From an uncultured Gammaproteobacteria bacterium (lineage in GTDB: Bacteria; Patescibacteriota; Microgenomatia; UBA8517): DNA of 64,000 bases. The translations under genes and the position numbers were made by a program. This document shows, piece after piece, positions 5,964 to 47,713 of the stretch. The stretch spans positions 233,522-297,521 of the forward strand of contig CAZGEA010000001.1 in NCBI GenBank assembly GCA_964524515.1, in the 5' to 3' direction. A model generated the notes under the pieces. It ran no database searches, was not told the origin of the DNA, and saw nothing but the letters and a program-made list of their open reading frames with translations. Position 1 is the first letter of the stretch, and each line of letters begins with the position of its first letter.

Positions 5964-6980
5964 TTAGCTCATAATTCCAAGCAGTATTCCCAAACTAATC
6001 ATCGTGGCTAAAAGTGAAGATCCACCTATCGAAATTAAAGGCAAAGTGAGGCCAGTAATTGGCAAAAACCCCAAATTCATACCAACATGAACAAAAGTCT
6101 GAAATATCAAAGAAAATATAATTCCCGATACAAAAACTCTCTCCTCACTCTTTATTCTAGTATCAAAAATCTTAATAATAATTAGATACAAAAGAAAAAG
6201 TAAAACCAAAACAATTATTGCTCCAAAAAAACCAAGTTCTTCAGAAATGGATGCATATGCAAAATCAGTATGCCTTTCTGGCAAAAATGCCAGTTGTGTC
6301 TGCACTCCACGGCCCAAACCTCTCCCCCAAAACCCTCCAGATCCAACAGAAATTACTGACTGAACACTATTGTAATGTGCACTTTCATTTCCACTATTAA
6401 ATAATGATTGTATTCTATCTTTTTGATAAGGATGTAAAAAGAAAAATAAAAATGGAGCCATAACAATAAATAAAACCGATGAAATTAAAATATATTTTTT
6501 ATTAACTGGAGATGAAATAAGCATTCCAATAAATCCACTCGCTGTCACAACTGCAACTCCTAATGAAGGCTGTGCAACTATCAATAGAAAAGCTATTCCA
6601 AACAAAAAAATTGATCCAATATATTTTTTCAAATTCATTTTGTTTTTCATATAAACTGCAAAAAAAACAAATAAAAATGGACGTATTAATTCACTTGGCT
6701 GAAATGCAAGATTTCCAATTGGAATCCATCTGATAACTCCACGTGATGCCTGTCCAATAATCAAAGTAATCAATAAAAGTACAATTGAAACAACATAAAA
6801 ATGTTTCCAAAAAATAGTAAGAATCGAAAAATCAATTCTAGAAAACAAAAAATAAAAAAACAGAGAAATTAGTATATAAATTAAATATGAGGGAAAAACA
6901 AATGGTGCAATCGATCTCATTACAACCAAAGAAAAAACAATTGTAATAATTATTAAGGCAGTAAAAACATATCTTCTCAT
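5964..6980 (-). CDS. SEDS-family peptidoglycan glycosyltransferase (RodA/FtsW family). This is the second copy outside the dcw cluster, so RodA-like by position.
   Basis: Polytopic. LAFLPERHTDFAYASISEELGFFG is the SEDS signature (LPExHTDFIF). Confidence 0.8.
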   Translation of the reverse strand: MRRYVFTALIIITIVFSLVVMRSIAPFVFPSYLIYILISLFFYFLFSRIDFSILTIFWKHFYVVSIVLLLITLIIGQASRGVIRWIPIGNLAFQPSELIRPFLFVFFAVYMKNKMNLKKYIGSIFLFGIAFLLIVAQPSLGVAVVTASGFIGMLISSPVNKKYILISSVLFIVMAPFLFFFLHPYQKDRIQSLFNSGNESAHYNSVQSVISVGSGGFWGRGLGRGVQTQLAFLPERHTDFAYASISEELGFFGAIIVLVLLFLLYLIIIKIFDTRIKSEERVFVSGIIFSLIFQTFVHVGMNLGFLPITGLTLPLISIGGSSLLATMISLGILLGIMS

Positions 6981-13715: not shown

Positions 13716-14822
13716 TTATTTAGCAATATATTCAAAAATTAAATCCACTATTTTTTGACTTGCGTTCTTGTCAAATTCAAATTCATTTTTATAATTTTTA
13801 ACAATACTATTCCAATTTTCATTTACAAAAATTATTTTATTTAATAAATTTTCAGGAGTTAAATCATCCTCTTTTAAAACCTGAGCCAAACCACTTTTCT
13901 CAAGAGATTTTGCATTTTTTGTCTGTTCATCATACCTTGTCCATGGTATTGGAATCAAAATAGACGGTATACCCAAATATCCAATTTCACACACTGTGTT
14001 TGCTCCGCTTCTACCAATTACGATATCTATTTTTTCATATATTTCACCTAAATCATCAGGATCAATCGTTTCATATACTTCATAATTTTGTAAATTTTTA
14101 GAATAGTTATCAAATTCATTAAAATCAAAAACACCAGTTTGGTGAATTATTTTATAATTAAGTTTTATTAATTTATCAATTATTGGCTTGATTGCAATAT
14201 TAATTTTATGAGCACCTCTCGATCCTCCTGTTATATAAGCAACAGGTTTTATGTGTTTTTTTACTTTTTTAGATAATTCTAAAATTTTTGGAAGAATTGG
14301 ATTACCAACTAATACAACTTTATCTTCCTTAAAATAAAGCTTACTATCCTCTCTAGCAATTGTTATTTTATCTGCAAAAAAAGATGATAATTTATTAGCT
14401 AAACCTACCGCAACAGTTTGCTCATGCAAAATACATGGAATTTGCAATATCCATGATGCAAAAACAACAGGTAACCCAACATATCCACCGAAAGATAATA
14501 CAACATCAGGTTTAATTTTTATTAACAAATAAAGCGCGTGAATAAATCCAAAAGGAATTCTCAAAAAAGAAAAAAATGCTGCTATAGAAAGTCTCCTTGA
14601 AAGTTTTCCAGAATACAAACTATGCATTAACACATTTTTTCTAGGGAAAATAATTTGCTCAAGTGTTTTTATTTTTTTTCCTTCAATTGAAGTTTTAGCT
14701 CCGATAAAATGTATTTCAATATCTTTATGTTCTTTTTGAATTTCGTCAATAACACAATATGCTGTTGTTGCAGCATGGCCACCAGTTAATAATATTTTAC
14801 TTTTTTTAATTTTCTCTTGCAT
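13716..14822 (-). CDS. murG: Undecaprenyl-PP-MurNAc-pentapeptide:UDP-GlcNAc GlcNAc transferase MurG (GT28)
   Basis: ILLTGGHAATTA N-terminal loop, ITGGSRGAHKIN (GGSQGA-like), and GRSGANTVCEIGYLGIPSILIPIP. Confidence 0.85.
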   Translation of the reverse strand: MQEKIKKSKILLTGGHAATTAYCVIDEIQKEHKDIEIHFIGAKTSIEGKKIKTLEQIIFPRKNVLMHSLYSGKLSRRLSIAAFFSFLRIPFGFIHALYLLIKIKPDVVLSFGGYVGLPVVFASWILQIPCILHEQTVAVGLANKLSSFFADKITIAREDSKLYFKEDKVVLVGNPILPKILELSKKVKKHIKPVAYITGGSRGAHKINIAIKPIIDKLIKLNYKIIHQTGVFDFNEFDNYSKNLQNYEVYETIDPDDLGEIYEKIDIVIGRSGANTVCEIGYLGIPSILIPIPWTRYDEQTKNAKSLEKSGLAQVLKEDDLTPENLLNKIIFVNENWNSIVKNYKNEFEFDKNASQKIVDLIFEYIAK

Positions 14823-15906
14823 TTCTTGAAATTCCTAAGATTATACCAAGTGCCAAAAATAAACTCATTAAACTTGTTTTTCCATATGACAAAAATGGAA
14901 GAGGAACACCAGTTAATGGAACCAAAGCAATCATTGAACCAATATTTAAAATAACTTGTGAACCAATCCACACTGCTATTGCACTACTAACAACCTTTGA
15001 AAAAACGTCATTACTTCGTTTAGAAATTCGAAACATTCTATATACAAAATATGCATAGATTAACAAAATTGAAACAGAACCTACAAATCCAATTTCTTCA
15101 GATATTATTGGAAAAATTGAATCAGTTGAAGCCTCAGGTAAAAATAAAAATTTCTGCTTAGATTGACCAAAACCTACACCAAAAACTCCACCTTGTGATA
15201 CTGCAAAAAGTGCTTGCTGTAAATGATAAGAAGAATTAAGTGGATGTTGCATAACATTTAAAAAATCAACAATTCGCTGTCTCCTGTATGAAGAAAACAT
15301 TGCAACCATCATAACAATTAAAACTACTCCAAATAAATATTTCATTAACACTTTAATTTCGATTCCAGACATAAATATAATAGATATTCCAATAGATCCA
15401 ATTAAAAGTGCAGTTCCCAAATCAGGCTGTGCCATAATTAAAAAACAAACCAAACCAAGTGGTACAAAAAAACCGATAACAGATCTTTTCAAATGCGCCA
15501 AATTGGCAAGATACAAAATTATAGAAATTTTAACTAATTCAGAAGGTTGAAAGCTCAATGGCCCTAAACTAAGCCATCTTCTGGCTCCCAAAAGTTTATT
15601 TCCAAAACCAGGTATAAGAACTAAAAACAGTAAAAATAAACTAAATGAAAATATATAAAATGAATTCTTTCTCCAAAAATCTGTTTTTAATTTTGATATA
15701 AAAATCATAAAACAAAAACCAATAAATGACCAAAGCAAATGAAATTTGGTATAAAACAATGGATCATTAAAATGGGTTGTCGCAGATGGAGTGGAGACGT
15801 CAGCTACAAAAATTACCCCCATTACAGTAAGCAAAAAAATCAACAAAAAAAGCACTTTATCAACTGGATTTCTCTTTTCGTTATTTATCTGTTTCCTGTG
15901 TCTCAC
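14806..15906 (-). CDS. ftsW: SEDS-family lipid II flippase / PG polymerase FtsW
   Basis: Polytopic. FLPEASTDSIFPIISEEIGFVGS is the SEDS signature. Located between mraY and murG. Confidence 0.85.
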   Translation of the reverse strand: MRHRKQINNEKRNPVDKVLFLLIFLLTVMGVIFVADVSTPSATTHFNDPLFYTKFHLLWSFIGFCFMIFISKLKTDFWRKNSFYIFSFSLFLLFLVLIPGFGNKLLGARRWLSLGPLSFQPSELVKISIILYLANLAHLKRSVIGFFVPLGLVCFLIMAQPDLGTALLIGSIGISIIFMSGIEIKVLMKYLFGVVLIVMMVAMFSSYRRQRIVDFLNVMQHPLNSSYHLQQALFAVSQGGVFGVGFGQSKQKFLFLPEASTDSIFPIISEEIGFVGSVSILLIYAYFVYRMFRISKRSNDVFSKVVSSAIAVWIGSQVILNIGSMIALVPLTGVPLPFLSYGKTSLMSLFLALGIILGISRNAREN

Positions 15907-15915
15907 ATTAATTAT

Positions 15916-16977
15916 TTAAATAAGTGCCAACCACAAACCAAAAATTGCAAGTACGATTCCAGCAATCCAAGCTCTCATTACAATTTTAGGTTCCTCCCAA
16001 CCAATTGCTAAAAAAGTATGATGAATTGGTGCAAGTGGAAATATTTTTCGTTTAAAAAATTTAATTCCAATTATTTGAATTGCAGATGATGCAGCTTCAA
16101 TTACAAATATTCCACCTACGACAAAAAGTGTCGGAACATTACCAACCAATAAACCAACAACAGCAATAGTAGATCCAAAAGCAAGTGATCCAGTGTCACC
16201 CAAAAATATTCTAGCTGGCCAAATATTAAAATATAAAAATGACAAAAGACTGCCAATCCATAATGCGACAAACAAAAACACAGGTGTATCCAAATTAGTT
16301 GCAGCAATAACAATATAAGCAATCAAATAAATAACTAATAATCCTGAAGCCAAACCATCCAATCCATCAGTAAAATTAAAAGCATTTGCAAAAAATACAA
16401 TTACAAAAGCTGCAAATGGAATAAATAACAACCCCATATGAAATGTTAATTTAATAATCGGAACATAAATATAACTAATTCCAAGTTTGTTATAAAGCAA
16501 AAATCCAATAATAAAACCAAGAATCCACTGAATAATAAATTTTTGATTTCTTGTTAACCCAAACGCAGAACTACCTGGTCCTTGAACTTTACCAAAAATC
16601 TTAACAAAATCATCGAGCACTCCAAGTAATCCAAAAGAAAGAAATGAGAAAAATATTATAAATAATTCATTTCCAAGATTAAATGAACTTTCAACAACAA
16701 CACCAACCTTGTAAAGAAGTGGAAATATAATTAAAAAAAGAATAGAAACAATAGACAATATCAAAATTCCTCCCCCTATTGGGGTGCCTGCCTTTTTATC
16801 ATGAAGCTTATCAAAAAGTGATTTGTTTCGAGTCACACCTTCACGCCTACGAGTAAAATTAATTTTGTACAAAAGGTCAATAAAAGGTACAACAAAAATA
16901 CTTGTAATAAAGAAAGAAAAAATAATAATTCCCAAGGCCAAAGGCAAAACAGAAGGTATATGCATATATTGCTCCAC
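15916..16977 (-). CDS. mraY: Phospho-N-acetylmuramoyl-pentapeptide transferase MraY
   Basis: NAFNFTDGLDGLASG (the MraY NAxNxTDGLDGLA motif) and HHTFLAIGWEE. Ten TM topology. Confidence 0.9.
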   Translation of the reverse strand: MEQYMHIPSVLPLALGIIIFSFFITSIFVVPFIDLLYKINFTRRREGVTRNKSLFDKLHDKKAGTPIGGGILILSIVSILFLIIFPLLYKVGVVVESSFNLGNELFIIFFSFLSFGLLGVLDDFVKIFGKVQGPGSSAFGLTRNQKFIIQWILGFIIGFLLYNKLGISYIYVPIIKLTFHMGLLFIPFAAFVIVFFANAFNFTDGLDGLASGLLVIYLIAYIVIAATNLDTPVFLFVALWIGSLLSFLYFNIWPARIFLGDTGSLAFGSTIAVVGLLVGNVPTLFVVGGIFVIEAASSAIQIIGIKFFKRKIFPLAPIHHTFLAIGWEEPKIVMRAWIAGIVLAIFGLWLALI

Positions 16978-17003
16978 TATTATACGTTATAATTGGTATA
17001 CAA

Positions 17004-17741
17004 ATGCAAACATTAATTGCAAACTCATTGATAAACTACGAATTATTTGGTGAGAAAAACAAAGAATCAATCATAATACTTCATGGGTGGCTAAGAAACC
17101 TTATCGAATGGAGACCAATAGCTATTAAATTATCTAATAAATACAAGGTCTATATTCTCGATTTACCTGGATTCGGTAATTCACCTCTTCCTGAACAGGA
17201 TAATATTGAAATGGAATGGTATGGTCAAATAGTTGAAAAATTCATTAAATCAGAAAACATTAAAAATCCAATTGGAATTGGCCATTCATTTGGTGGGAGA
17301 ACACTATTAGTGACAGCATCCAAAATAAAATTTAAAAAAATATTTCTTGTCGATACTCCAGGAGTAACAGACCGAGACACTTTAACTAATATCAAAATAA
17401 TTATTGGCAAAATAGTAAAATATTTTCTATTTCCATTCCCAAAATATATTGTAGAAAAAATTAGACTAAAATTTTCACCAAGTTATAAAAACCTATCAAA
17501 ACCGTTAATTGAAATATTAAAAAAAATTGTAAAACAAAACTTAACAGAATATGCAGAAAAAATCGATTGTGAATCTATATTAATTTGGGGAGAAAACGAT
17601 AAAGATGTACCTTTACCAGATGCTTTTAAACTAAAAAATTTAATTAAAAATTCGACTTTACGAGTCATTTGGGGTGCAGGCCATTCACCACATATTGAAA
17701 AAACAAATAAATTTATTAACACAATCAACGAATATCTATGA
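17004..17741 (+). CDS. Alpha/beta-fold hydrolase
   Basis: HGWLRNLIEW...LPGFGNS and the nucleophile elbow GIGHSFGG, with C-terminal GAGHSPHIE (catalytic His region). Confidence 0.75.
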   Translation: MQTLIANSLINYELFGEKNKESIIILHGWLRNLIEWRPIAIKLSNKYKVYILDLPGFGNSPLPEQDNIEMEWYGQIVEKFIKSENIKNPIGIGHSFGGRTLLVTASKIKFKKIFLVDTPGVTDRDTLTNIKIIIGKIVKYFLFPFPKYIVEKIRLKFSPSYKNLSKPLIEILKKIVKQNLTEYAEKIDCESILIWGENDKDVPLPDAFKLKNLIKNSTLRVIWGAGHSPHIEKTNKFINTINEYL

Positions 17742-19126
17742 TAGATAATATTTTCCCATTAAAACTTCACTTAACAATTCTTCAACTAGAAGAATACAAA
17801 TCTTGGAGATTTATTAGCTGGATAATCAAAAATCCATCAATGCGTTTTGTAGAAACAAAAAAACCACTAAAAATAACTCAAAAAATAAAAATGATAATAG
17901 TTGCTGGATTTATTTGGTTGGTACTTTTTTCTTTTATTTCTTATTTATTATTTTCAAATTTTTTTGTGTCTTTAATTATTAGTTTATTATTAGCCACCCA
18001 ACCATGGATATTCATCATCCTTGGTCTATTCACAATTTTGCCATATGAATACTTTAATAAAATAAAAACTGTCAAAGAAACAAATTCAAAAATAAATAGT
18101 ATAAAAAATCTTAAAGTAATTGGAATATCAGGTAGTTACGGAAAAACTTCCACAAAAGAACTTTTATATCAATTAATTAAAGATGAATTCAAAACTTTAA
18201 GAACACCTGATAGCTACAACACAATATTCGGCATCGCAAAAGTTGTTAAATATGAATTAGATAAAACATATCAAGTATTTATATGCGAACTAGGTGAATA
18301 CAAAATTGGCGAAGTTAAATATTTAAGCAATATGGTAAATCCAAAGTATGGATTAATTACTGGAATTACTAAGCAGCATTTTGAAAGATTTAAATCAATT
18401 GATTCAATCACCAAAACTGTTTTTGAATTAGCGGATTTTATTGCAGATAAAACAAAAATTGCATTAAACATTTCATCTAGAGAAATTAAAAATGAATCAA
18501 AAAATTATCCCGATTCAATAAAATACGGAAATGACAATAGTAATGTATATATCAATAATGTAAATTTTGGAAAAGAATCAACTAATTTAAACTTAATAAT
18601 TAATAAAAAATTATATAAAGTAAAAACCAATCTATTTGGATTCTCAGCTATAAATAATTTATGTGGAGCAATTGCAGGTGCTCTAATTTTAGAAATTGAT
18701 GTTAAAAAAATTATTGATAAAATTCCTAATTTAAAACCATTTGATCATAGATATGAACGTGCTCAACAGGGTAAAACTACAATAGTAGATAACACTTATT
18801 CAAGCAATATTGTGGGTTTCAATGAAACTATTAAAACTGCATCAACAATAAAAGGAACAAAAGTATTAATTACTCCAGGAATTGTTGAATTGGGATCTGC
18901 AGAATTTGATGCACATCAAGAAATTGGAAAAAATTTAAATGGTGCTTTTGATAAAATAATTTTGGTCGGAGAAAATAATAGAACTAGAGCTTTAAAAAGT
19001 ACTATTACAGACAAAAATGTCTTAATAATTAATGATACAAGAAAAGAATATCAAGAAATATTAAATAATTTAATTGGAAAATATGATTGGATATTTCTAG
19101 AAAACGATGTCACACAAAATTATTAA
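17738..19126 (+). CDS. Mur ligase family protein, MurF-like, with the canonical N-terminal domain replaced by a roughly 110-aa region containing 2-3 predicted TM helices
   Basis: ATP P-loop VIGISGSYGKTSTKE, a Mur ligase middle domain, and a C-terminal DNTYSSNI (MurF DDSYNANP-like) plus LITPGIVELGSAEFDAHQEIG. N-terminal hydrophobic stretches MIIVAGFIWLVLFSFISYLLF and FFVSLIISLLLATQPWIFIILGLFTIL. Confidence 0.7.
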   Translation: MIDNIFPLKLHLTILQLEEYKSWRFISWIIKNPSMRFVETKKPLKITQKIKMIIVAGFIWLVLFSFISYLLFSNFFVSLIISLLLATQPWIFIILGLFTILPYEYFNKIKTVKETNSKINSIKNLKVIGISGSYGKTSTKELLYQLIKDEFKTLRTPDSYNTIFGIAKVVKYELDKTYQVFICELGEYKIGEVKYLSNMVNPKYGLITGITKQHFERFKSIDSITKTVFELADFIADKTKIALNISSREIKNESKNYPDSIKYGNDNSNVYINNVNFGKESTNLNLIINKKLYKVKTNLFGFSAINNLCGAIAGALILEIDVKKIIDKIPNLKPFDHRYERAQQGKTTIVDNTYSSNIVGFNETIKTASTIKGTKVLITPGIVELGSAEFDAHQEIGKNLNGAFDKIILVGENNRTRALKSTITDKNVLIINDTRKEYQEILNNLIGKYDWIFLENDVTQNY

Positions 19127-20310
19127 GCCTTAGCACCTTTTGAACCACCTGAAGCAAATCCACTTAATGCATTATTTGAAAAAGTAGTTGTCAATTTTTG
19201 TTTTGCTTTATGTTTTACAATTGCATAATCAATCAATTTATCAAGAAGTTTTGTAAAACTAACTCCCGACTCCTTCCAAAGATAAAATGATAAAGATCCA
19301 GGCATTGGATTTATTTCATTAAAATAAACTTTCTTCTCATCGTTACTCATTAAATAATCGATTCTACAAATTCCAGAACCACCAATTTCTCTGAAAAAAT
19401 CTTTAGAATATTTTTCGACTCTCTCAATTACATCTTTTTTAACTTTTGCAGGAACTATTCTTTTAAGTGATGCCATACCTTTTGACTTACCAGATTCACC
19501 AATATATTTATCTTCAAATGACAGCACACTACTCGATTTTATTGGTTCTTCACAAACTGAACATTCATAATTTCCAGGAACTCCAATCACTGAAATATTA
19601 ATTTCTCGAGCATTTTCAAGTGATTCTTCAATAATTGCTTTACTGTCGTAATAAAAACAAACATTTAGAGCATTTATTAATTCTTTTTCATTTGTAACGT
19701 GAGTTACACCAATCGAAGAGCCCAAATTAACTGGCTTTACAAAAACAGGAAAATTTAACTTTGTTTTTATTTTTTTAATTACAGATTTTGTATCATCTTC
19801 CCATTCATATTTATCAACCCAACAATCTTTCATTACAGGCACATCAACAGATCTTGCAATAGTTTTACTAAGAACCTTATCCATGGAAATGGCAGAGGAT
19901 CGCACATCACAACCCACATACGGAATATTCATTAATTCAAAAAGTCCCTGAACTGATCCATCTTCTCCATGTCTGCCATGAAAAACAGGAAACAAAATAT
20001 CAATTGGATCTTTAATCATTGATTTAAAAACTGTAAATGCTCCAGGTTTTTCAATAGTATAAGGAGATGTTGGATCAGGCATTAGTGAAGATTTTTTCAT
20101 TGATTCAATCTTTTCGATATCACGAAAAGTTTTAGGATCAAAAAAACTATTGTCGCCGACAATCCATTCACCTTTTTTAGTTATATAAATAGGCAAAACA
20201 TTATACTTTTCCTTATTCAGTGCATTAAGCACTTGAATTCCAGAAATTATAGATATTTCATGCTCAGTCGATCTCCCCCCAAACAATACTGCAATGTTTA
20301 ATTTATTCAT
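19123..20310 (-). CDS. ddl: D-alanine--D-alanine ligase (ATP-grasp)
   Basis: IAVLFGGRSTEHEISIISG is the N-terminal Ddl signature. ATP-grasp motifs ICRIDYL and YFNEINPMPG are present. Confidence 0.9.
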   Translation of the reverse strand: MNKLNIAVLFGGRSTEHEISIISGIQVLNALNKEKYNVLPIYITKKGEWIVGDNSFFDPKTFRDIEKIESMKKSSLMPDPTSPYTIEKPGAFTVFKSMIKDPIDILFPVFHGRHGEDGSVQGLFELMNIPYVGCDVRSSAISMDKVLSKTIARSVDVPVMKDCWVDKYEWEDDTKSVIKKIKTKLNFPVFVKPVNLGSSIGVTHVTNEKELINALNVCFYYDSKAIIEESLENAREINISVIGVPGNYECSVCEEPIKSSSVLSFEDKYIGESGKSKGMASLKRIVPAKVKKDVIERVEKYSKDFFREIGGSGICRIDYLMSNDEKKVYFNEINPMPGSLSFYLWKESGVSFTKLLDKLIDYAIVKHKAKQKLTTTFSNNALSGFASGGSKGAKA

Positions 20311-20342: not shown

Positions 20343-21359
20343 TTATTTTTTTACCCAAGGTAGTTTGCCATCATTTCGAGATTTAACATAGTCAATAAAT
20401 TCAAAATACCTTTTTGGATTAATAAACATGCTTCCATTTCCTGTTCCCAATTCCCAATCCTTACCTTGAAAATCACTTCCCCCCAACACCAACTTACCAC
20501 GTTCTCTGCAAACTTTTAAAACATTAATTGGAATATCTAATTTACTCCCACTATTACCCAAAGCACCCCCATGCCAGGCCATAATACCATCAATTTCACC
20601 TGACATTAAACTTTTCCAGACATCAATATCGAATGCACCTTCAGGTGAATAAAGAACAACACCACCCGCTTGATGAACTTGATCAACTACTTCCGAAAAA
20701 TGCTTTTGAACAGGTAAATATCCAGGTCTATTTACTGCAAAAAACAAATTGTACAAAAATTTTGCATCAATTCTCTGAGGGCTATTGTAATATTCATTTT
20801 CTCTACATGTATCAATTGTTTTATTCCAAATTTCATAATTAGATGCTTTTAATTCTTGAACAATCTTTTTGTTTACATCATCAGACGATTTTGAAATTAT
20901 TTCACAAAATTTAATAGCTTTTTCGCTCGTCTCTCCATTTAAAAGACTTTTCATTATATTTAGTTCTTCGTTACCTAAATTTAAAAATGAAAAACCATTA
21001 TTTTCTAAAAAACTTTTTTGCTCTAATGCAATTTCCTTATTTTGAATACTTGAACCCTTAACTGAAAAAAGTGGAATATCATCAGGATCAAATCCCAAGC
21101 AAATCAAATCAGCTCGTTTTCTTTCGTTACCTAAAAAAGTCGTGTACTCAGCTCCTGGCACAATTGCAACACCAATTTTATTTCCATATTCAATAAAATC
21201 ATGCATGTAAGGGGAAACATCTGATTTAGCCAAAAGACCAATAGCAACTACTCCTTTATTCTTTGCCATATCAATTAAAGAATATGTTGATTGTGCATCA
21301 TCCAATATATCGTAATGCACATGCATATCTACTCTTTGTTTTGGCGCATTCTCATTCAT
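20343..21359 (-). CDS. PHP-domain metal-dependent phosphoesterase (putative)
   Basis: RVDMHVHYDI (PHP motif I, HxH) and VPGAEYTT (G-x-E motif). Confidence 0.5.
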   Translation of the reverse strand: MNENAPKQRVDMHVHYDILDDAQSTYSLIDMAKNKGVVAIGLLAKSDVSPYMHDFIEYGNKIGVAIVPGAEYTTFLGNERKRADLICLGFDPDDIPLFSVKGSSIQNKEIALEQKSFLENNGFSFLNLGNEELNIMKSLLNGETSEKAIKFCEIISKSSDDVNKKIVQELKASNYEIWNKTIDTCRENEYYNSPQRIDAKFLYNLFFAVNRPGYLPVQKHFSEVVDQVHQAGGVVLYSPEGAFDIDVWKSLMSGEIDGIMAWHGGALGNSGSKLDIPINVLKVCRERGKLVLGGSDFQGKDWELGTGNGSMFINPKRYFEFIDYVKSRNDGKLPWVKK

Positions 21360-22096
21360 CTTATTTTATTCTTTGCATTTTCATATTCTTCTGGTGTATT
21401 AATACTCTTCCATTCATTTGTATCTTCCAAAAGATAACTTCTAATTAATTCATTATATTTACGTGAAAGATAAATCAAACCTGATGGAAGTGGATATTCA
21501 TTTGAATTGGGATTTATTGGAAACTCGCCATTATATCTTTTGATCCACTCACTATTCAAACAAAACGCCCCACAAAGAATAAATCGTTGATCATTAATAT
21601 TTTCTAAATTTTCTTTTGTAATAATATCTTCAACAATTCCGTCACCACTAATTCTTAAACCCCCAAGCTGATTAGAAGCTGTTGTACGAGAAACAAGCAT
21701 TGTAATCTTTGAATTTTGCAAATAATGATAATTTACAAAATTTGAAAGAGTATTTAATGAATAAAAACTAGAATCATCGGCAAAAAGCAATAAAAAATCG
21801 CTCTCATTAATAAATTGAGAATCCAAAGCTACATGTAAAGCATGGCCTGTTCCTAGCAATTCTTTTTGAATTACAAATCTAACTTGAGGAAAATCTCTTT
21901 TTACAACATCCATTACTAAATCCGCCTTAAAACCAACAACCACAACCACAGTTCCCAAATTATCTAATTTATACAAATTTTTCAAAGATTTAATAATTAT
22001 TGGAGTACCATCTATTTCAAGTAAAGCTTTAGGAATATCTCCCCCCATCCTTGTTCCTCGTCCAGCAGCCAAAATTATTGCAGCAATTTTTCTCAT
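21356..22096 (-). CDS. Stand-alone sugar-1-phosphate nucleotidyltransferase resembling the GlmU N-terminal (uridylyltransferase) domain, with no LbH acetyltransferase domain
   Basis: AAIILAAGRGTRMGGDIPKALLEIDG (NTP_transferase G-loop) and LGTGHALHVA (the GlmU LGTGHA motif). 246 aa. Confidence 0.7.
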   Translation of the reverse strand: MRKIAAIILAAGRGTRMGGDIPKALLEIDGTPIIIKSLKNLYKLDNLGTVVVVVGFKADLVMDVVKRDFPQVRFVIQKELLGTGHALHVALDSQFINESDFLLLFADDSSFYSLNTLSNFVNYHYLQNSKITMLVSRTTASNQLGGLRISGDGIVEDIITKENLENINDQRFILCGAFCLNSEWIKRYNGEFPINPNSNEYPLPSGLIYLSRKYNELIRSYLLEDTNEWKSINTPEEYENAKNKIR

Positions 22097-42129: not shown

Positions 42130-43221
42130 TTATACCAATGATTCATACAATTGAATTGTTTTCCCAGCTGAATCGCTCCATTTAAATTTCATTGATCTAT
42201 TTTTACCACTTTTAATATAAAAATCCCTTTTACTTAGTACTTTCTCGATCCCATCAACTAATGATTCAAGTGACTTTGGATCAATTAAAACTGCAGAATC
42301 ACCTGCAACCTCAGGAAGACTAGATGTGTTTGAACAAACAACTGGAACACCACAATTCATAGCTTCAAGAATAGGCAAACCAAATCCTTCATAAAGAGAT
42401 GGATAAACCATAGCACTAGCTCCAGAATACAAAGCTGGAATTTCATCTTTATTTACATGACCAGTAAAAATCACATTATCCAATTCACCATTAACTTGAT
42501 AATGATTCTGACCACCAATAATTACGAGCTTATATTTTTTCTTAAATCTAGAAAACGCCTTAAGAAGCAAATTTGTATTCTTTCGTCCACCAACTCCAAT
42601 TGTTACTAAATAATCCCCACTTATTTCATACTTCTTCAAAACCAAATCAATTTTATTTTTATCAATTTTGCCATAATTAGCTGATACAGCCTCAGGAATA
42701 ACTACTATTCTTTTCTCATCAATTCCATATTCAATTGCATCATTCTTTGTTGATATTGATGGAACTATAATTTTATCTGACTCTTTTCGTACCAATTCAA
42801 GTCTTCTTTTATGAACTTCAACAATTTTAGGATTTGTCTCACTTTCAAAAAGAATTGGAGCAAAATCGTGCACTGTTGTAACTTTTATTCCATTAAATCT
42901 AGGCTCAGTCCAATCTGATGTATGAAATAAATCAAGATCACCAACTATCAAATTTATTGGCATAAAATGAATTTTATTCCAAATAATATCTGCAATACTT
43001 GGAGAAAATGGTGTAACCAACATCCTGGTGTTATTATTTTTTACCAAATTGTAAAAACGATTAAAATCTTCACGTCTTCTTAATGTTCCACAAAAAAATG
43101 TATATAAATTTTTTTTATCAATTTCTAAAATACTTTTAACAAGATTTTCAGTATAAACTGACACTCCTGTTTCATAAATCAATTGCGATATATCGATACC
43201 AATCTTCATTTTATTTCTCAT
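42130..43221 (-). CDS. Glycosyltransferase family 4
   Basis: EGFGLPILEAMNCGVPVVCSNTSSLPEVAG. Confidence 0.8.
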   Translation of the reverse strand: MRNKMKIGIDISQLIYETGVSVYTENLVKSILEIDKKNLYTFFCGTLRRREDFNRFYNLVKNNNTRMLVTPFSPSIADIIWNKIHFMPINLIVGDLDLFHTSDWTEPRFNGIKVTTVHDFAPILFESETNPKIVEVHKRRLELVRKESDKIIVPSISTKNDAIEYGIDEKRIVVIPEAVSANYGKIDKNKIDLVLKKYEISGDYLVTIGVGGRKNTNLLLKAFSRFKKKYKLVIIGGQNHYQVNGELDNVIFTGHVNKDEIPALYSGASAMVYPSLYEGFGLPILEAMNCGVPVVCSNTSSLPEVAGDSAVLIDPKSLESLVDGIEKVLSKRDFYIKSGKNRSMKFKWSDSAGKTIQLYESLV

Positions 43222-44527
43222 ATCTCCACACTAATATACCATTAAAATTAATATCACCAGTTTTTCGATATCCAACTGATTCAATTTTTAATCTAGTACT
43301 ATCACTAGGGTCACTCACTTCTTGGACATACCTCAATAAAAAAATCTTATTTGTTTTCATTTCAAAATTTATATTCCCAGAATAATAATTATCTTTTTTG
43401 GCATAAAATTTATATGCCTCCATTTGGCTATTTGACGGGAACACAACAATCGAATCCTTATTTTCACTATTTAATTCAACAAATGATACTAAACCTCTCC
43501 AATCTTCCCTTTGAAAATTATGATTAAACAAATACACACTTGATGTTGTGATGTTAATTGACAACAAAACAAAAACAATCAGCATGTTTATCTTTTTAGA
43601 AAAATTAAAAACCCCAATTGAAACTAACAAATAAAATGCAGGTAATAAAAATAAAAATCTAAAATAATTAAGAACAGGTATTTTAAATGAAATTAAAATA
43701 GCAATCAAAAACGGAAAAAATAACCACAAAAAAACTACCTTTATTTTTTTAAATAAATAAAATGATTTATATATTAAATAAAAAAATAATAAAGTAACGA
43801 TCAAAGAAACAAAACCATATATTATTTTATTATCAAAGCTCACCCTTCCTAAAATAAACTTAACTGGCAATAAAAATATCTCTTTAAATGATAATTCCCC
43901 TAAAAGTTTTGACCAAGCAGGTGAGTTAGAAATTGAACTAAATCCAGAAAACAATTGTATAAAAAACACATTTGACCAAAATACAAAAAATAATAGTGTT
44001 GGTAAAAACGAATACATTATTCTTTTAATATTATTTCTATCCAAATATGAATCAACAATAAAAATAGGAAATATTAAAGTAGCTAAATAATCAGTCATCG
44101 CAACTAAAAGTAAACACAAAGAAAATAATAACCATTTTTTACAAAGATACGAATAAATCAAAAAACAAACCAAAAAAGTTACCATTGAATACATCCTCGC
44201 TTCCTGTGAGTAATAAATATGAAGTCCAGATGTGGCAATCAATAAACTTGCAAACAAACCAATCTTTTTGTTTACAATTTTCTCGCCGATCTTATAAATT
44301 AAAAAGATTGTACCCAATCCAAACAATATTGATAAACCTCTTCCGGGAATCAGTCGAAACAATAGATAATATAACGGAGGGTGAAAATCTCCAACTATAA
44401 ATTTATTAAAAAAATCTGAAATACTAATGCTAACTGTTGAAAAAGTAGTTGCCTCGTCAAGCCATAGTGATTGATTTATCGATATTATTCTTAACAAAAA
44501 ACCAAAAAATATTATTAAACTAATCAT
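43211..44527 (-). CDS. GT-C-fold membrane glycosyltransferase, PMT_2/ArnT-like
   Basis: Polytopic. First extracytoplasmic loop SLWLDEATTF (the DE motif typical of GT39/GT83-like enzymes). Confidence 0.6.
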   Translation of the reverse strand: MISLIIFFGFLLRIISINQSLWLDEATTFSTVSISISDFFNKFIVGDFHPPLYYLLFRLIPGRGLSILFGLGTIFLIYKIGEKIVNKKIGLFASLLIATSGLHIYYSQEARMYSMVTFLVCFLIYSYLCKKWLLFSLCLLLVAMTDYLATLIFPIFIVDSYLDRNNIKRIMYSFLPTLLFFVFWSNVFFIQLFSGFSSISNSPAWSKLLGELSFKEIFLLPVKFILGRVSFDNKIIYGFVSLIVTLLFFYLIYKSFYLFKKIKVVFLWLFFPFLIAILISFKIPVLNYFRFLFLLPAFYLLVSIGVFNFSKKINMLIVFVLLSINITTSSVYLFNHNFQREDWRGLVSFVELNSENKDSIVVFPSNSQMEAYKFYAKKDNYYSGNINFEMKTNKIFLLRYVQEVSDPSDSTRLKIESVGYRKTGDINFNGILVWRYEK

Positions 44528-45357: not shown

Positions 45358-46370
45358 TTAATGATCTTATCAAATTGATCAATGTATTTTTGTGCAATTT
45401 TGCTCCATCCAAAATTACTTGACTGATTAAATGGTTTTCTTCCCCACTTAGTATTTAAAGCTTTTTTAATTAAATTTGAATACTCAATTAAGTTATTCGG
45501 ATCAACAAAATATCCAGCATCACCCACAATTTGTTTTCTAATTGGATCATCTGAACAAACAATTGGTAAATTTGAAGCCATAGCTTCAAGCATCACAATA
45601 CCAAATGACTCATAAAATTGAGTTGAATATGTAAATAAATCACACGATCTATATATTATCGGCATATCTTCATATTTTGATTCAATTATTCTAAATCGTC
45701 CTGGCATCATTCTATTTGCTTGTTCTTCCAATTTACTTTTAAGACTTCCTTTTCCTACAATCAAAAGTGAAACACTATCCAATTTTGAAACAGCATTAAT
45801 AACCAAATCAAATCTCTTAATATCTTCAAGCGCCCCACAAGACAAAACAATTGGATGTTTTAATCCAAAATCTCGCTTTTGACCATTCGGATTAAATTTC
45901 ACAGAATCAACACCATTTGGAATTGTTACAACTTTTACAAATGGCGCAAAATTACGAGCCCAATTACTTTGAAATTCAGTCAAACCAATAAATAAATCAG
46001 GAAAACATAGTAAATTAAATTTATCATCCCTTCCCAATCCAGATTGCCCAGGAATAACTAATTTAGTTTTCTTTCCAAATGTCCATATTTTCGAAAATAA
46101 ACTTTGAAATCCACCATTTGTGGCAAATAAAACATCAGTATCCATTGAAACATTCATCAAAGCCTTAACGGCAAACAAATTCTGATCATTAATTGTAATT
46201 GTTTTATAAAATGAGTTAGTTAGCTTTTCACCAGTTTGATAAACAGTAACATTGTGACCAAGTTGAACAAACTTATTTGAAAGTTCATGCACATATGTCT
46301 CAACTCCTCGATACACAGAACCACTATGCTTACTCAAAAAAACAATATTTAATTTTTTATTCTTTTCCAT
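45354..46370 (-). CDS. Glycosyltransferase family 4
   Basis: ESFGIVMLEAMASNLPIVCSDD. Confidence 0.8.
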   Translation of the reverse strand: MEKNKKLNIVFLSKHSGSVYRGVETYVHELSNKFVQLGHNVTVYQTGEKLTNSFYKTITINDQNLFAVKALMNVSMDTDVLFATNGGFQSLFSKIWTFGKKTKLVIPGQSGLGRDDKFNLLCFPDLFIGLTEFQSNWARNFAPFVKVVTIPNGVDSVKFNPNGQKRDFGLKHPIVLSCGALEDIKRFDLVINAVSKLDSVSLLIVGKGSLKSKLEEQANRMMPGRFRIIESKYEDMPIIYRSCDLFTYSTQFYESFGIVMLEAMASNLPIVCSDDPIRKQIVGDAGYFVDPNNLIEYSNLIKKALNTKWGRKPFNQSSNFGWSKIAQKYIDQFDKIIK

Positions 46371-47713
46371 ATTTCTAAATTAAGATTATCAATTCTATTA
46401 ACTTCATAAAAAGAATTAAGATAAGCACTAAATAACACCGATCTATAACCATCAATATCATAATAACTTTTATTTGTATCGTTTGTTTTAATTATATACT
46501 CCGGGTTTTTATCACTATTCCATTTGTTAAGTGTATTCATTGATTCGTTTTGTATTTCAAAATACCAAGGATAATTATCCAACCATGGTGTTGGCGGCAA
46601 TAAATTTGCACTAAAATATAAACCAGAATGCAAACCTAATAAATAAACATTATCGCTTTTTAAAATTACTTCATTCAAAGTATTTGATATCTTTAAATCA
46701 CTATTTTCAAAAAATCTAATCGAATTGCTAAATTTAAAACTTGGTTTAATAATAAAATAGCCCATCAAAATAATTAAAATCAAAATTAATATTTGCTTAC
46801 CAGCGGTAAATTTATTTAAAACTATTCTCCATAACAATACTGATATAATTAAATTGCTAGATAAATGAATTGGTGTATATCTAGGAAACATCAAAAATAA
46901 AGACAATAAAGAAAATATAACTAATGACAGACTAATTTTATTTCTTAAATTTCTTTTCAAAACAATCAAAAATATTGGAAAGTTTACAATAAACATAAAA
47001 ATCATTTCCCTCTTTGAATTTAATAAATATAAATACCCAGGAATTTCTCTCCAAAAATATAATGGGTAATAAATTGCCCATCTATAAAAATCACCAACAG
47101 TATTTGAAGTTACAAGATATAAAATAAAAATGGTAACAGGAACAACAAAACCTAAAATATAATTAAGTAAAATTTTTAAGTTTCTTTCATATATTAAAAC
47201 TAATAACAAACTAGGTGGAAAAAAAATTATTGAGGTTTGTTTTGTTAAAAAACATAAGCCTAAAAATAAACCAGCTAAAAAAAATCGACTTCTAATATAA
47301 TAAAATATAAAAATTATTAAATACAAAGATAAAATTGAATCAGGCCAAAAAGAATTTGGTACAAACTCAAACATCAATATTACTAAAAATAATCCATACA
47401 ATATTACCTTTAAGTCTTTTTTTAAATTGATAACTTCAAATACTTTTATAAAAACTAATAAAGTAATTAATTTATAAAAAATAAAAAATAATTTCAAAAA
47501 AAATGGATTAACAAATCCAATCTTAAAAAATAAAATTTGTGGCAAAATAGAAAGTGGCGTATAAACAAACACCAAATCTTTATATAAAACAAGTCCATTA
47601 TTTACAAAATAGGGAAAACTAAGCATCTCAGGCCACAATGTAAATGAAAATGACATCAGAAAAATTATCTGCAAAATGAATAATATAATTAAACCAAAAT
47701 TATACTGTTTCAT
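46349..47713 (-). CDS. Polytopic membrane protein with a C-terminal soluble domain (possible GT-C/polymerase-like)
   Basis: About 10 hydrophobic segments in the first 330 aa, then a hydrophilic tail of about 120 aa. No recognisable motif. Confidence 0.45.
   Translation of the reverse strand: MKQYNFGLIILFILQIIFLMSFSFTLWPEMLSFPYFVNNGLVLYKDLVFVYTPLSILPQILFFKIGFVNPFFLKLFFIFYKLITLLVFIKVFEVINLKKDLKVILYGLFLVILMFEFVPNSFWPDSILSLYLIIFIFYYIRSRFFLAGLFLGLCFLTKQTSIIFFPPSLLLVLIYERNLKILLNYILGFVVPVTIFILYLVTSNTVGDFYRWAIYYPLYFWREIPGYLYLLNSKREMIFMFIVNFPIFLIVLKRNLRNKISLSLVIFSLLSLFLMFPRYTPIHLSSNLIISVLLWRIVLNKFTAGKQILILILIILMGYFIIKPSFKFSNSIRFFENSDLKISNTLNEVILKSDNVYLLGLHSGLYFSANLLPPTPWLDNYPWYFEIQNESMNTLNKWNSDKNPEYIIKTNDTNKSYYDIDGYRSVLFSAYLNSFYEVNRIDNLNLEIWKRIKN

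Follow-up and report, generated by a model that had tools for sequence, protein, structure and literature searches.

A MurF-type ligase with a predicted N-terminal membrane module, encoded with an EstV-like hydrolase inside a dcw cluster

A plus-strand gene pair and its Mur ligase

The window analyzed in this study, a 64-kb stretch of DNA (64,000 nucleotides of contig CAZGEA010000001.1), is AT-rich, with about 28% G+C, and carries a division and cell wall (dcw) cluster on its minus strand. The genes of this cluster are ftsZ, ftsA, an ftsQ-like gene, murG, ftsW, mraY, ddl, two small genes, ftsI, ftsL, rsmH, and mraZ. Inside it, with mraY on one side and ddl on the other, lie two genes on the plus strand: one for an alpha/beta hydrolase of 245 amino acids (aa) and one for a 462-aa Mur ligase. 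By sequence, a conserved membrane module takes the place of the first MurF domain in this ligase, and the ligase and its partner hydrolase are the subject of this study. The genes and features of the locus are as follows.

15916-16977, minus strand: mraY, phospho-N-acetylmuramic acid (MurNAc)-pentapeptide transferase (Pfam Glycos_transf_4, E = 3.8e-29)
17004-17741, plus strand: alpha/beta hydrolase of 245 aa, EstV-like and predicted to be a serine carboxylesterase of the cytoplasm (Pfam Abhydrolase_1, E = 2.6e-18)
17738-17741, plus strand: ATGA overlap of the hydrolase stop and the ligase start (read from the sequence)
17738-19126, plus strand: Mur ligase, 462 aa
17738-17878, plus strand: predicted cytosolic head of the ligase, residues 1-47, with motif 1, R24/F25/W28, and motif 2
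17879-18061, plus strand: predicted transmembrane hairpin, residues ~48-108 (TM1, 48-72; TM2, 75-~108, kinked at Pro89)
18041-18121, plus strand: P-Y-E motif (residues 102-104) at the predicted cytosolic end of TM2, and the helical spacer to the P-loop strand (from the AlphaFold2 (AF2) model)
18122-18160, plus strand: ATP-binding P-loop GISGSYGKTSTKE, residues 129-141 (from the sequence; aligns with GSSGKTS of E. coli MurF)
18125-18676, plus strand: Mur ligase central ATPase domain, MurF type (Pfam Mur_ligase_M, residues 130-313, E = 4.4e-29)
18746-19123, plus strand: Mur ligase C-terminal domain with the MurF-type motifs DNTYSSN and TPGIVELG...H (Pfam Mur_ligase_C, residues 337-453, E = 5.4e-6)
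19123-19126: TTAA overlap of the convergent stop codons of the ligase gene and ddl (read from the sequence)
19123-20310, minus strand: ddl, DdlA-type D-alanine--D-alanine ligase, 395 aa (NCBIfam NF002528 and TIGR01205)

The original prediction for this locus had placed the plus-strand pair 26 bp from mraY, with a 4-nt overlap with ddl, and both its coordinates and its junctions proved exact. The gap of 26 bp is counted from a GTG start of mraY at 16977 (353 aa). The start is ambiguous, and mraY may instead begin at the ATG at 16965 (349 aa), as called on identical Logan contigs, in which case the gap is 38 bp. Because the divergent spacer between mraY and the hydrolase gene is only 26-38 bp long, the promoters for both transcription units must fall within coding sequence. 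A promoter and terminator scan of 16400-19700 gave no signal above chance, and no terminator was found between the convergent ligase and ddl genes. At the junction within the pair, the ATGA overlap suggests that the hydrolase and the ligase are translationally coupled.

To which Mur family does the ligase belong? Judged by profile, fold, and pairwise score, it is of the MurF type. Its top NCBIfam family was murF (TIGR01143, 172.2 bits), compared with 52 bits or less for the MurC, MurD, and MurE models, and the alignment paired ligase residues 123-426 with model positions 72-376 of 418, leaving domain 1 uncovered. The 17 NCBIfam matches at E <= 0.01 were all to MurC-F, their pseudomurein counterparts, Mpl, or CfbE, with MurF well ahead, and none of them was a CapB/PgsB, FPGS/FolC, MurT, or cyanophycin-synthetase model. 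The sequence matches in the PDB were to the MurF proteins of Thermotoga, Acinetobacter, E. coli, Streptococcus, and Pseudomonas (3zl8, 4qdi, and 1gg4 among them), and every one of these alignments began at about residue 119-129 of the ligase. Furthermore, when the AF2 model was searched with Foldseek, the top matches were all MurF structures (4qf5, 3zl8, and 4cvm), with a TM-score of ~0.7 over ~360 columns. In phmmer comparisons, whose targets were E. coli proteins together with Mur ligases from related clusters, the window ligase scored 61 bits against E. coli MurF and at most 32 bits against other Mur ligases; for five family members, the scores were 61-149 bits against E. coli MurF and no higher than 58 bits against any MurC, MurD, or MurE.

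The conserved motifs agree with this assignment. The P-loop GISGSYGKTSTKE and the C-domain motifs DNTYSSNI and ELGSAEFDAHQEIG, which the original prediction had read as marks of a genuine MurF-type ligase, were all found in the 462-aa protein. Aligned with E. coli MurF, the ligase shares the P-loop, the Mg-binding Glu (ELG), QH..RF, K-x-E, D-x-x-Y-x-x-N, and (P)G-x-x-ELG, and the P-loop residues G132, S133, K136, and K140 were invariant in 71 sequences. At its C-terminus, the ligase has a family-specific LENDV-x-x-NY (19097-19123) where canonical MurF has KGSR, and the motif [LF]END[LV] was present in 77 of 82 family members.

The N-terminal membrane module

In canonical MurF, a soluble domain 1 binds the uridine diphosphate (UDP) end of the substrate. 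On the evidence of the sequence, this domain is replaced in the window ligase, and not merely supplemented, by a conserved membrane module comprising the first ~120 residues. The AF2 model of the ligase (built with 71 homologues) had a predicted local distance difference test (pLDDT) score of 95 and a predicted template modeling (pTM) score of 0.92. In the predicted cytosolic head, it placed helices at residues 8-17 and 22-31 with a pLDDT of 86-95. The head carries motif 1, (L/F)Q-x-x-(E/G)-Y (LQLEEY in the window), and motif 2, KKPL-x-x-T-x-K, both of which are common to members from the Candidate Phyla Radiation (CPR) and to those from outside it. Across 71 sequences, the module residues Q16, Y20, W28, K41, and K49 were invariant.

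The head is followed by a strongly hydrophobic stretch with Kyte-Doolittle maxima of 2.2-2.5. Lys and Arg are absent between residues 52 and 105; the N-terminal flank of the stretch has 10 such residues and its C-terminal flank has 5. Basic residues on both flanks of the hairpin are consistent with the positive-inside rule. Since the AF2 helices span residues 48-72, 75-86, and 89-120, with the kink at Pro89 lying inside TM2, the hairpin is predicted to form two membrane spans and not three, with both the N- and the C-terminus in the cytosol. The original prediction had proposed two to three hydrophobic helices in place of the N-domain. The hydrophobic region was borne out (residues ~48-108) and a third span was not, and a soluble N-terminus aligned with MurF domain 1 was not seen: the region is hydrophobic by composition and forms a membrane hairpin in the AF2 model, and the alignments to MurF begin at about residue 119-125. 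A mis-called start with a non-coding N-terminus was also considered and was ruled out by the conservation of the region, the ATGA overlap, and the pLDDT of 95.

Could the module be no more than a tether, as had been proposed? A scan of one genome per GTDB species yielded 80 related loci, and in 77 of these, the distance from the P-x-E motif to the P-loop was 29-30 residues. In the AF2 model, the helix of residues 89-120 runs unbroken into the P-loop strand (126-131). A spacing so fixed, together with a continuous helix, would place the catalytic domain rigidly at the membrane surface, with no flexible linker. With its invariant cytosolic motifs and its fixed-length helix into the catalytic domain, the module is more than a tether. 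The cytosolic head probably stands in for domain 1, holding the nucleotide-diphosphate end of the acceptor.

The module is kept throughout the family. The original prediction had suggested checking whether relatives conserve the membrane form. A hydrophobic N-terminal region was present at all 80 loci, with a hydropathy-window maximum of at least 2.0 in all except L014, and conservation of the N-terminal region extended to the 120 best homologues, with a coverage of about 100%. In non-CPR members, one additional span precedes motif 1 and a further two separate motif 1 from motif 2, for a total of four or five spans; because the number of spans added between the motifs is even, both motifs would remain cytosolic. 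In Pfam, nothing matched the module significantly (MgtE came closest, at 16 bits where the cutoff is 27.6), and the module is skipped when the whole protein is aligned with the NCBIfam murF model. When 1.84 billion representative proteins were searched with a profile of the module, at least 586 protein clusters (50% identity) were matched, and among the 150 matches listed, the module was always N-terminal in a protein of 440-530 aa or in a fragment. Stand-alone copies of the module were also looked for; the short database matches inspected were truncated MurFs that still had the P-loop.

The three-gene unit and its setting

The hydrolase encoded just upstream of the ligase has its catalytic Ser in the sequence GHSFGG, and an Asp and a His complete the triad, which did not vary among 20 orthologues from six phyla or among 37 homologues from the databases. 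Its AF2 model (pLDDT 91) was confident except in the lid region. By profile and by fold, the closest solved structures were the membrane phospholipase A1 PlaF (6i8w), PhaZ, Lip1, and ABHD6, which are lipid or short-chain esterases. The best NCBIfam match was NF058580, 'EstV family lipase'. It aligned over nearly its full length (hydrolase residues 10-224 with model positions 15-218 of 230) and scored 112.7 bits, under its cutoff of 300. The EstV family was also the top NCBIfam match in four of six other orthologues, and five other orthologues scored 110-136 bits against the EstV model, again below 300. By these scores, the window hydrolase is a distant relative of EstV and not an equivalog. 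A homology search with the hydrolase returned homologues bearing generic names only.

Membrane MurF and hydrolase travel together in each of the phyla sampled. A hydrolase homologue was encoded directly upstream of the membrane MurF, on the same strand, at 77 of the 80 loci, and one of the three exceptions was cut by a contig end. A ddl gene followed directly downstream at 72 loci, convergent in 18 and co-directional in 54; the convergent loci were mostly CPR-type sequences, plus one from Chloroflexia (L034). When the 1972 neighbouring open reading frames (ORFs) of the loci were clustered, only these three families were conserved, and no fourth conserved neighbour family emerged. The original prediction had left the hydrolase unexplained; by its matches, it is an EstV-like carboxylesterase, by the ATGA overlap apparently coupled in translation to the ligase. 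We infer that it is a physical or functional partner of the membrane MurF at the same membrane-proximal site. An accessory or editing function there is suggested by its likeness to short-chain esterases and by how strictly the two genes occur together.

The carriers of the unit are widely spread. Within the CPR, they comprise Microgenomates, Parcubacteria, Saccharibacteria, Gracilibacteria, and Dojkabacteria; among the Clostridia, they comprise Ruminococcus (the isolate R. flavefaciens MC2020 included), Christensenellaceae, Oscillospiraceae, Lachnospiraceae, and Tissierellales. The others are Chloroflexia (Chloroflexota), Scalindua (Planctomycetota), Bipolaricaulia (Bipolaricaulota), and one actinomycete (Actinomycetota). 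The order of mraY, hydrolase, ligase, and ddl seen in the window was also found at loci L003, L004, and L007. Hydrolase, membrane MurF, and ddl thus form a conserved cross-phylum unit, which in the window and in these three relatives lies within the dcw cluster, and the pair is not the 'island' peculiar to one cluster that it had been taken for. A recent inversion or a horizontally acquired island was considered as well and was rejected, as the composition of the pair equals that of its surroundings and the same layout occurs in relatives at only 44-47% identity. The unit lies outside the dcw cluster in Ruminococcus, Christensenellaceae, and others, and in Christensenellaceae it follows the housekeeping genes tsaB and rimI.

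Is the membrane MurF the only MurF of its hosts? There is no other Mur ligase within the window. In L004 (Ca. Microgenomatus, 44% identity), the cluster reads ftsI-murA-murB-murE~murC-murD-ddl-[inverted hydrolase, membrane murF]-mraY-ftsW-murG-ftsQ-ftsA-ftsZ; all of its genes passed their NCBIfam cutoffs, and none of them is a canonical murF. In two Clostridia, L077 and L027, the hydrolase, membrane murF, ddl, and murE lie upstream of mraY-murD-ftsW. In L077 murE abuts mraY, and in L027 the two are separated by two ORFs without a Pfam match. Neither cluster contains a canonical murF, and the usual murF slot is without a Mur ligase. Because the membrane MurF is the only MurF in the complete clusters of L004, L077, and L027, we read it as the housekeeping enzyme there. 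The ddl gene of the window also scores as an ordinary one, with 330 bits for NF002528 (cutoff, 262) and 279 bits for TIGR01205 (cutoff, 245.65). A Van-type identity was tried for it and rejected, as the VanA, VanB, VanC, and VanG models gave 165-244 bits against cutoffs of 495-775.

Several observations on the related loci may be added. In L004, a single uninterrupted ORF of 926 aa (13976-16756, minus strand) encodes first MurE (residues ~5-466) and then MurC (470-929), each scoring above its curated cutoff, and it appears to be a MurE-MurC fusion. In the Scalindua locus L035 (5507-14207, plus strand), the gene order is a response regulator-GAF-HD protein, a DdlB-type ligase, an M15 (VanX/DdpX-like) dipeptidase, the hydrolase, the membrane MurF, a 194-aa ORF without a Pfam match, a DdlA-type ligase, and a 306-aa ORF without a Pfam match. 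The two ddl types and the dipeptidase hint at a regulated or alternative handling of the dipeptide. At loci L012-L015, L017, L018, L020-L022, L044, L053, L064, and L071, the N-termini of the membrane MurFs are CPR-like or near-identical to those of Ruminococcus. The labels that these loci carry ('uncultured Gammaproteobacteria', 'Pseudomonadales', 'Acidiphilium', and 'Alistipes') are probably wrong as taxonomy of metagenome-assembled genomes.

The minus strand of the window holds further genes of note. Between ddl and the next gene, a 338-aa ORF (20343-21359) has no significant Pfam match and no NCBIfam match. Its N-terminal sequence DMHVHYD contains an H-x-H pattern that recalls metal-dependent hydrolases. 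In the closest relatives with this cluster, L003, L004, and L007, a phmmer search for homologues of the ORF found none. A stand-alone nucleotidyltransferase of 246 aa (21356-22096) is also encoded within the dcw cluster between ddl and ftsI; it resembles only the N-terminal uridyltransferase half of GlmU, at about 100 bits, far under the cutoffs. About 3.4 kb from ftsZ lies a gene for a second SEDS protein (5964-6980; RodA/FtsW family, 232 bits), whose neighbour is a 946-aa ORF that is aminoacyl-tRNA-synthetase-like and has a TTG start in the ORF listing. A long surface-polysaccharide cluster (27955-53242) encodes a DUF4012 protein, a Bac_transf priming transferase, a nucleoside triphosphate (NTP) transferase, at least seven glycosyltransferases, PMT-like and Wzy-like membrane proteins, and a Polysacc_synt flippase. 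Two of its ORFs, at 43211-44527 and 46349-47713 (438 and 454 aa), have no Pfam match.

Readings of the unit and comparison with known systems

MraY is an integral membrane protein and the next enzyme in the pathway after MurF. We think it probable that the window ligase is the housekeeping MurF of its host, embedded in the membrane at the inner face beside MraY, acting on a UDP-linked substrate and passing its product to MraY. MurE would make UDP-MurNAc-tripeptide in the cytosol, the adjoining Ddl would supply D-Ala-D-Ala, and the membrane MurF would join the dipeptide to the tripeptide and hand the UDP-MurNAc-pentapeptide directly to MraY. The active site would sit close to the membrane's inner face, at an unvarying distance from it and beside the MraY that uses the product, and the esterase would be a co-translated partner. 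The domain architecture, the MurF-type homology, the membrane topology, the conservation, the synteny, and the lack of any other murF in the complete clusters of relatives all point in this direction. If the reading is right, the ligase would be catalytically active on the UDP-linked substrate, would channel its product to MraY, and would form a complex with the esterase. The original prediction had offered the organism's MurF with a membrane tether as the first of two possibilities, and it is the MurF assignment, now backed by profile, fold, and pairwise score, that we keep.

Several points weigh against this reading. The ligase scores below the curated cutoff for murF TIGR01143 (172.2 against 288.6 bits); two distant members also fall below it, with 220 and 265 bits, yet both are far above the MurE, MurD, and MurC models. 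No counterpart of MurF domain 1 was found, as the HMM (hidden Markov model), PDB, and fold alignments begin only at residue ~119-125 (123 for the HMM). Other Mur-type ligases that have no UDP-binding domain, namely MurT and CapB, use non-UDP substrates, which weakens the assumption of a UDP-linked substrate for the membrane MurF. The genes murC, murD, and murE lie outside the 64-kb window, and the rest of the genome may hold a second murF, of the canonical kind. In Scalindua, as perhaps in other lineages, the membrane MurF may coexist with a canonical or duplicate set, since the unit there has next to it a gene for an M15 D-Ala-D-Ala dipeptidase and another ligase gene, of the DdlB type. That the esterase binds MurF or acts on a cell-wall intermediate is a supposition, and the membership of H. 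pylori and C. jejuni in this exact family would follow from the literature, synteny, and the EstV match.

Could the module instead bind the lipid end of a membrane-linked acceptor? The module might recognize a MurNAc-tripeptide that is already lipid-linked, as lipid I or lipid II tripeptide, by its undecaprenyl-pyrophosphate end, so that D-Ala-D-Ala would be added after MraY and not before it. The UDP-binding domain 1 is wholly absent, and the module that replaces it is conserved, polytopic in many lineages, and more elaborate than an anchor requires, with its invariant aromatic and basic residues all on the cytosolic face; the catalytic domain is predicted to sit rigidly at the membrane surface. 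Precedent would come from MurT, which acts on lipid II with a partner enzyme and whose structure (7q8e) is among the fold matches, and the partner hydrolase resembles the lipid esterases PlaF and ABHD6. On the other hand, MurE in the same clusters is full-length and canonical, so UDP-MurNAc-tripeptide would be made in the cytosol. MraY is ordinary by Pfam and would be expected to have the textbook preference for the pentapeptide, and the cytosolic head could equally form a new UDP pocket. We judge a lipid-linked acceptor unlikely, although it is the main rival of the housekeeping reading.

A bolder form of this idea, to which we give somewhat less credence still, is that the last step of stem-peptide synthesis takes place at the membrane in the CPR, several Clostridia, Campylobacterota, and others. 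The module would then bind undecaprenyl pyrophosphate, the dipeptide would be added after MraY, and the EstV-like esterase would be an integral second subunit of the enzyme. If a lipid-linked acceptor and an esterase subunit were true, the textbook order of peptidoglycan precursor synthesis would be changed for much of bacterial diversity.

The unit might also be an accessory cassette that stands beside a canonical murF and serves as a specialized second MurF, for example, under particular conditions or with another dipeptide or depsipeptide. In favor of this, Ruminococcus, Christensenellaceae, and others carry the unit away from their dcw clusters, and at the Scalindua locus, with its two ddl types, the gene for a VanX-like M15 dipeptidase immediately precedes the unit; of the genome of the window's host, 64 kb was examined. 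Against this stand the complete clusters of L004, L077, and L027, which have no other murF, and the adjoining ddl, which scores above the D-Ala-D-Ala ligase cutoffs and far under those for Van ligases. In Christensenellaceae, moreover, the unit sits among the housekeeping genes tsaB and rimI, and the MurF of H. pylori, membrane-bound according to the passage cited below, is described as essential (PMC9507126). A second MurF seems improbable to us, a notch below both forms of the lipid-linked proposal.

The other possibility raised in the original prediction, a membrane-anchored amide ligase of the PgsB/CapB type repurposed for another polymer, shares with those enzymes an N-terminal membrane anchor and the lack of a Mur N-domain, but it is already disfavored and very improbable, given that the window ligase has no CapB/PgsB, FPGS/FolC, MurT, or cyanophycin-synthetase match, that the FolC, cyanophycin-synthetase, or MurT matches of two distant members are weak and far under murF (MurT, 28 bits in one member), that the C-domain motifs are of the MurF type, and that the gene lies between mraY and ddl, with the ddl linkage kept across phyla.

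Teaching presents MurC to MurF as soluble enzymes of the cytoplasm, and it has long been asked whether, with MraY and MurG, they make up an assembly line associated with the membrane. In the membrane MurF, attachment to the membrane is part of the protein itself. The only prior record of such an enzyme in the literature searched was a single remark on H. pylori; to this, the present survey adds a wide spread (at least 586 clusters; CPR, gut Clostridia, Chloroflexota, Planctomycetota, and others), the replacement of domain 1, invariant motifs of the module's own, and the pairing with an esterase. The membrane MurF is thus an under-appreciated, widespread variant of an essential enzyme in an antibiotic-target pathway. 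Annotation is affected as well, since membrane MurFs fall under the curated murF threshold and the module has neither a Pfam nor an NCBIfam model. Cultivable carriers are at hand in Ruminococcus flavefaciens and also, if the literature and synteny place them correctly, in H. pylori and C. jejuni.

Compared with canonical MurF (E. coli b0086; structures 1gg4, 3zl8, 4qf5, and 4cvk), the window ligase has the same central ATPase and C-terminal domains, the P-loop, the E/QH/K-x-E residues, D-x-x-Y-x-x-N, the genomic link to ddl and mraY, and, presumably, the same reaction (EC 6.3.2.10). It differs in having a membrane module for domain 1 and LEND-x-x-x-Y for KGSR, in its sub-cutoff score, and in its obligate esterase neighbour. 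MurT-GatD, the lipid II isoglutamine synthase, has a co-encoded partner enzyme and a membrane-bound substrate, lipid II. Like the window ligase, MurT is a Mur-type ligase without an N-terminal UDP-binding domain, and its structure 7q8e was among the fold matches; unlike it, MurT is soluble, has a DUF1727 C-domain, and is partnered by a glutaminase, and the MurT model gave no match to the window ligase. The poly-gamma-glutamate synthetase PgsB/CapB is an amide ligase of the Mur-ligase fold with an N-terminal membrane anchor. It shows no sequence-family match to the window ligase and has another substrate, other partners, and another genomic context. The window hydrolase, in turn, shares the alpha/beta fold, the Ser-Asp-His triad, and the lid region with family V carboxylesterases and lipases (EstV, PlaF, and ABHD6-like), from which it differs in having no membrane anchor of its own.

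The closest parallels are found in Campylobacterota. EstV, the nearest curated family of the window hydrolase, is encoded in H. pylori by what we take to be HP0739, between ddlA (HP0738) and murF (HP0740). A passage of PMC3741291, citing Ruiz et al. 2007, places EstV of H. pylori among the family V carboxylesterases, with C2-C6 esters as its preferred substrates. The C. jejuni murF gene (Cj0795c) lies together with genes for an alpha/beta hydrolase (Cj0796c) and Ddl (Cj0798c), and a role of the hydrolase in peptidoglycan synthesis was suggested by the authors (PMC5530802). A hydrolase and ddl thus adjoin murF there as they do in the window unit; ddl is convergent in the window and co-directional elsewhere. 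The H. pylori murF gene HP0740, at 1485 bp (PMC6501431), is longer than a canonical murF. A passage of PMC9448923, citing Blair et al. 2018, gives H. pylori MurF four N-terminal transmembrane domains and counts it among the inner-membrane proteins. As described there, it has transmembrane helices ahead of the MurF catalytic domains, as the window ligase does, with four predicted helices compared with two in the window and four or five in the non-CPR members.

In the literature searched, we found no paper on a membrane-bound MurF outside Helicobacter, and no account of the wide distribution, the loss of domain 1, the module motifs, or the esterase pairing of the membrane MurF. The kind is, therefore, already on record through H. 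pylori, although barely characterized, and the window ligase is its two-span CPR version.

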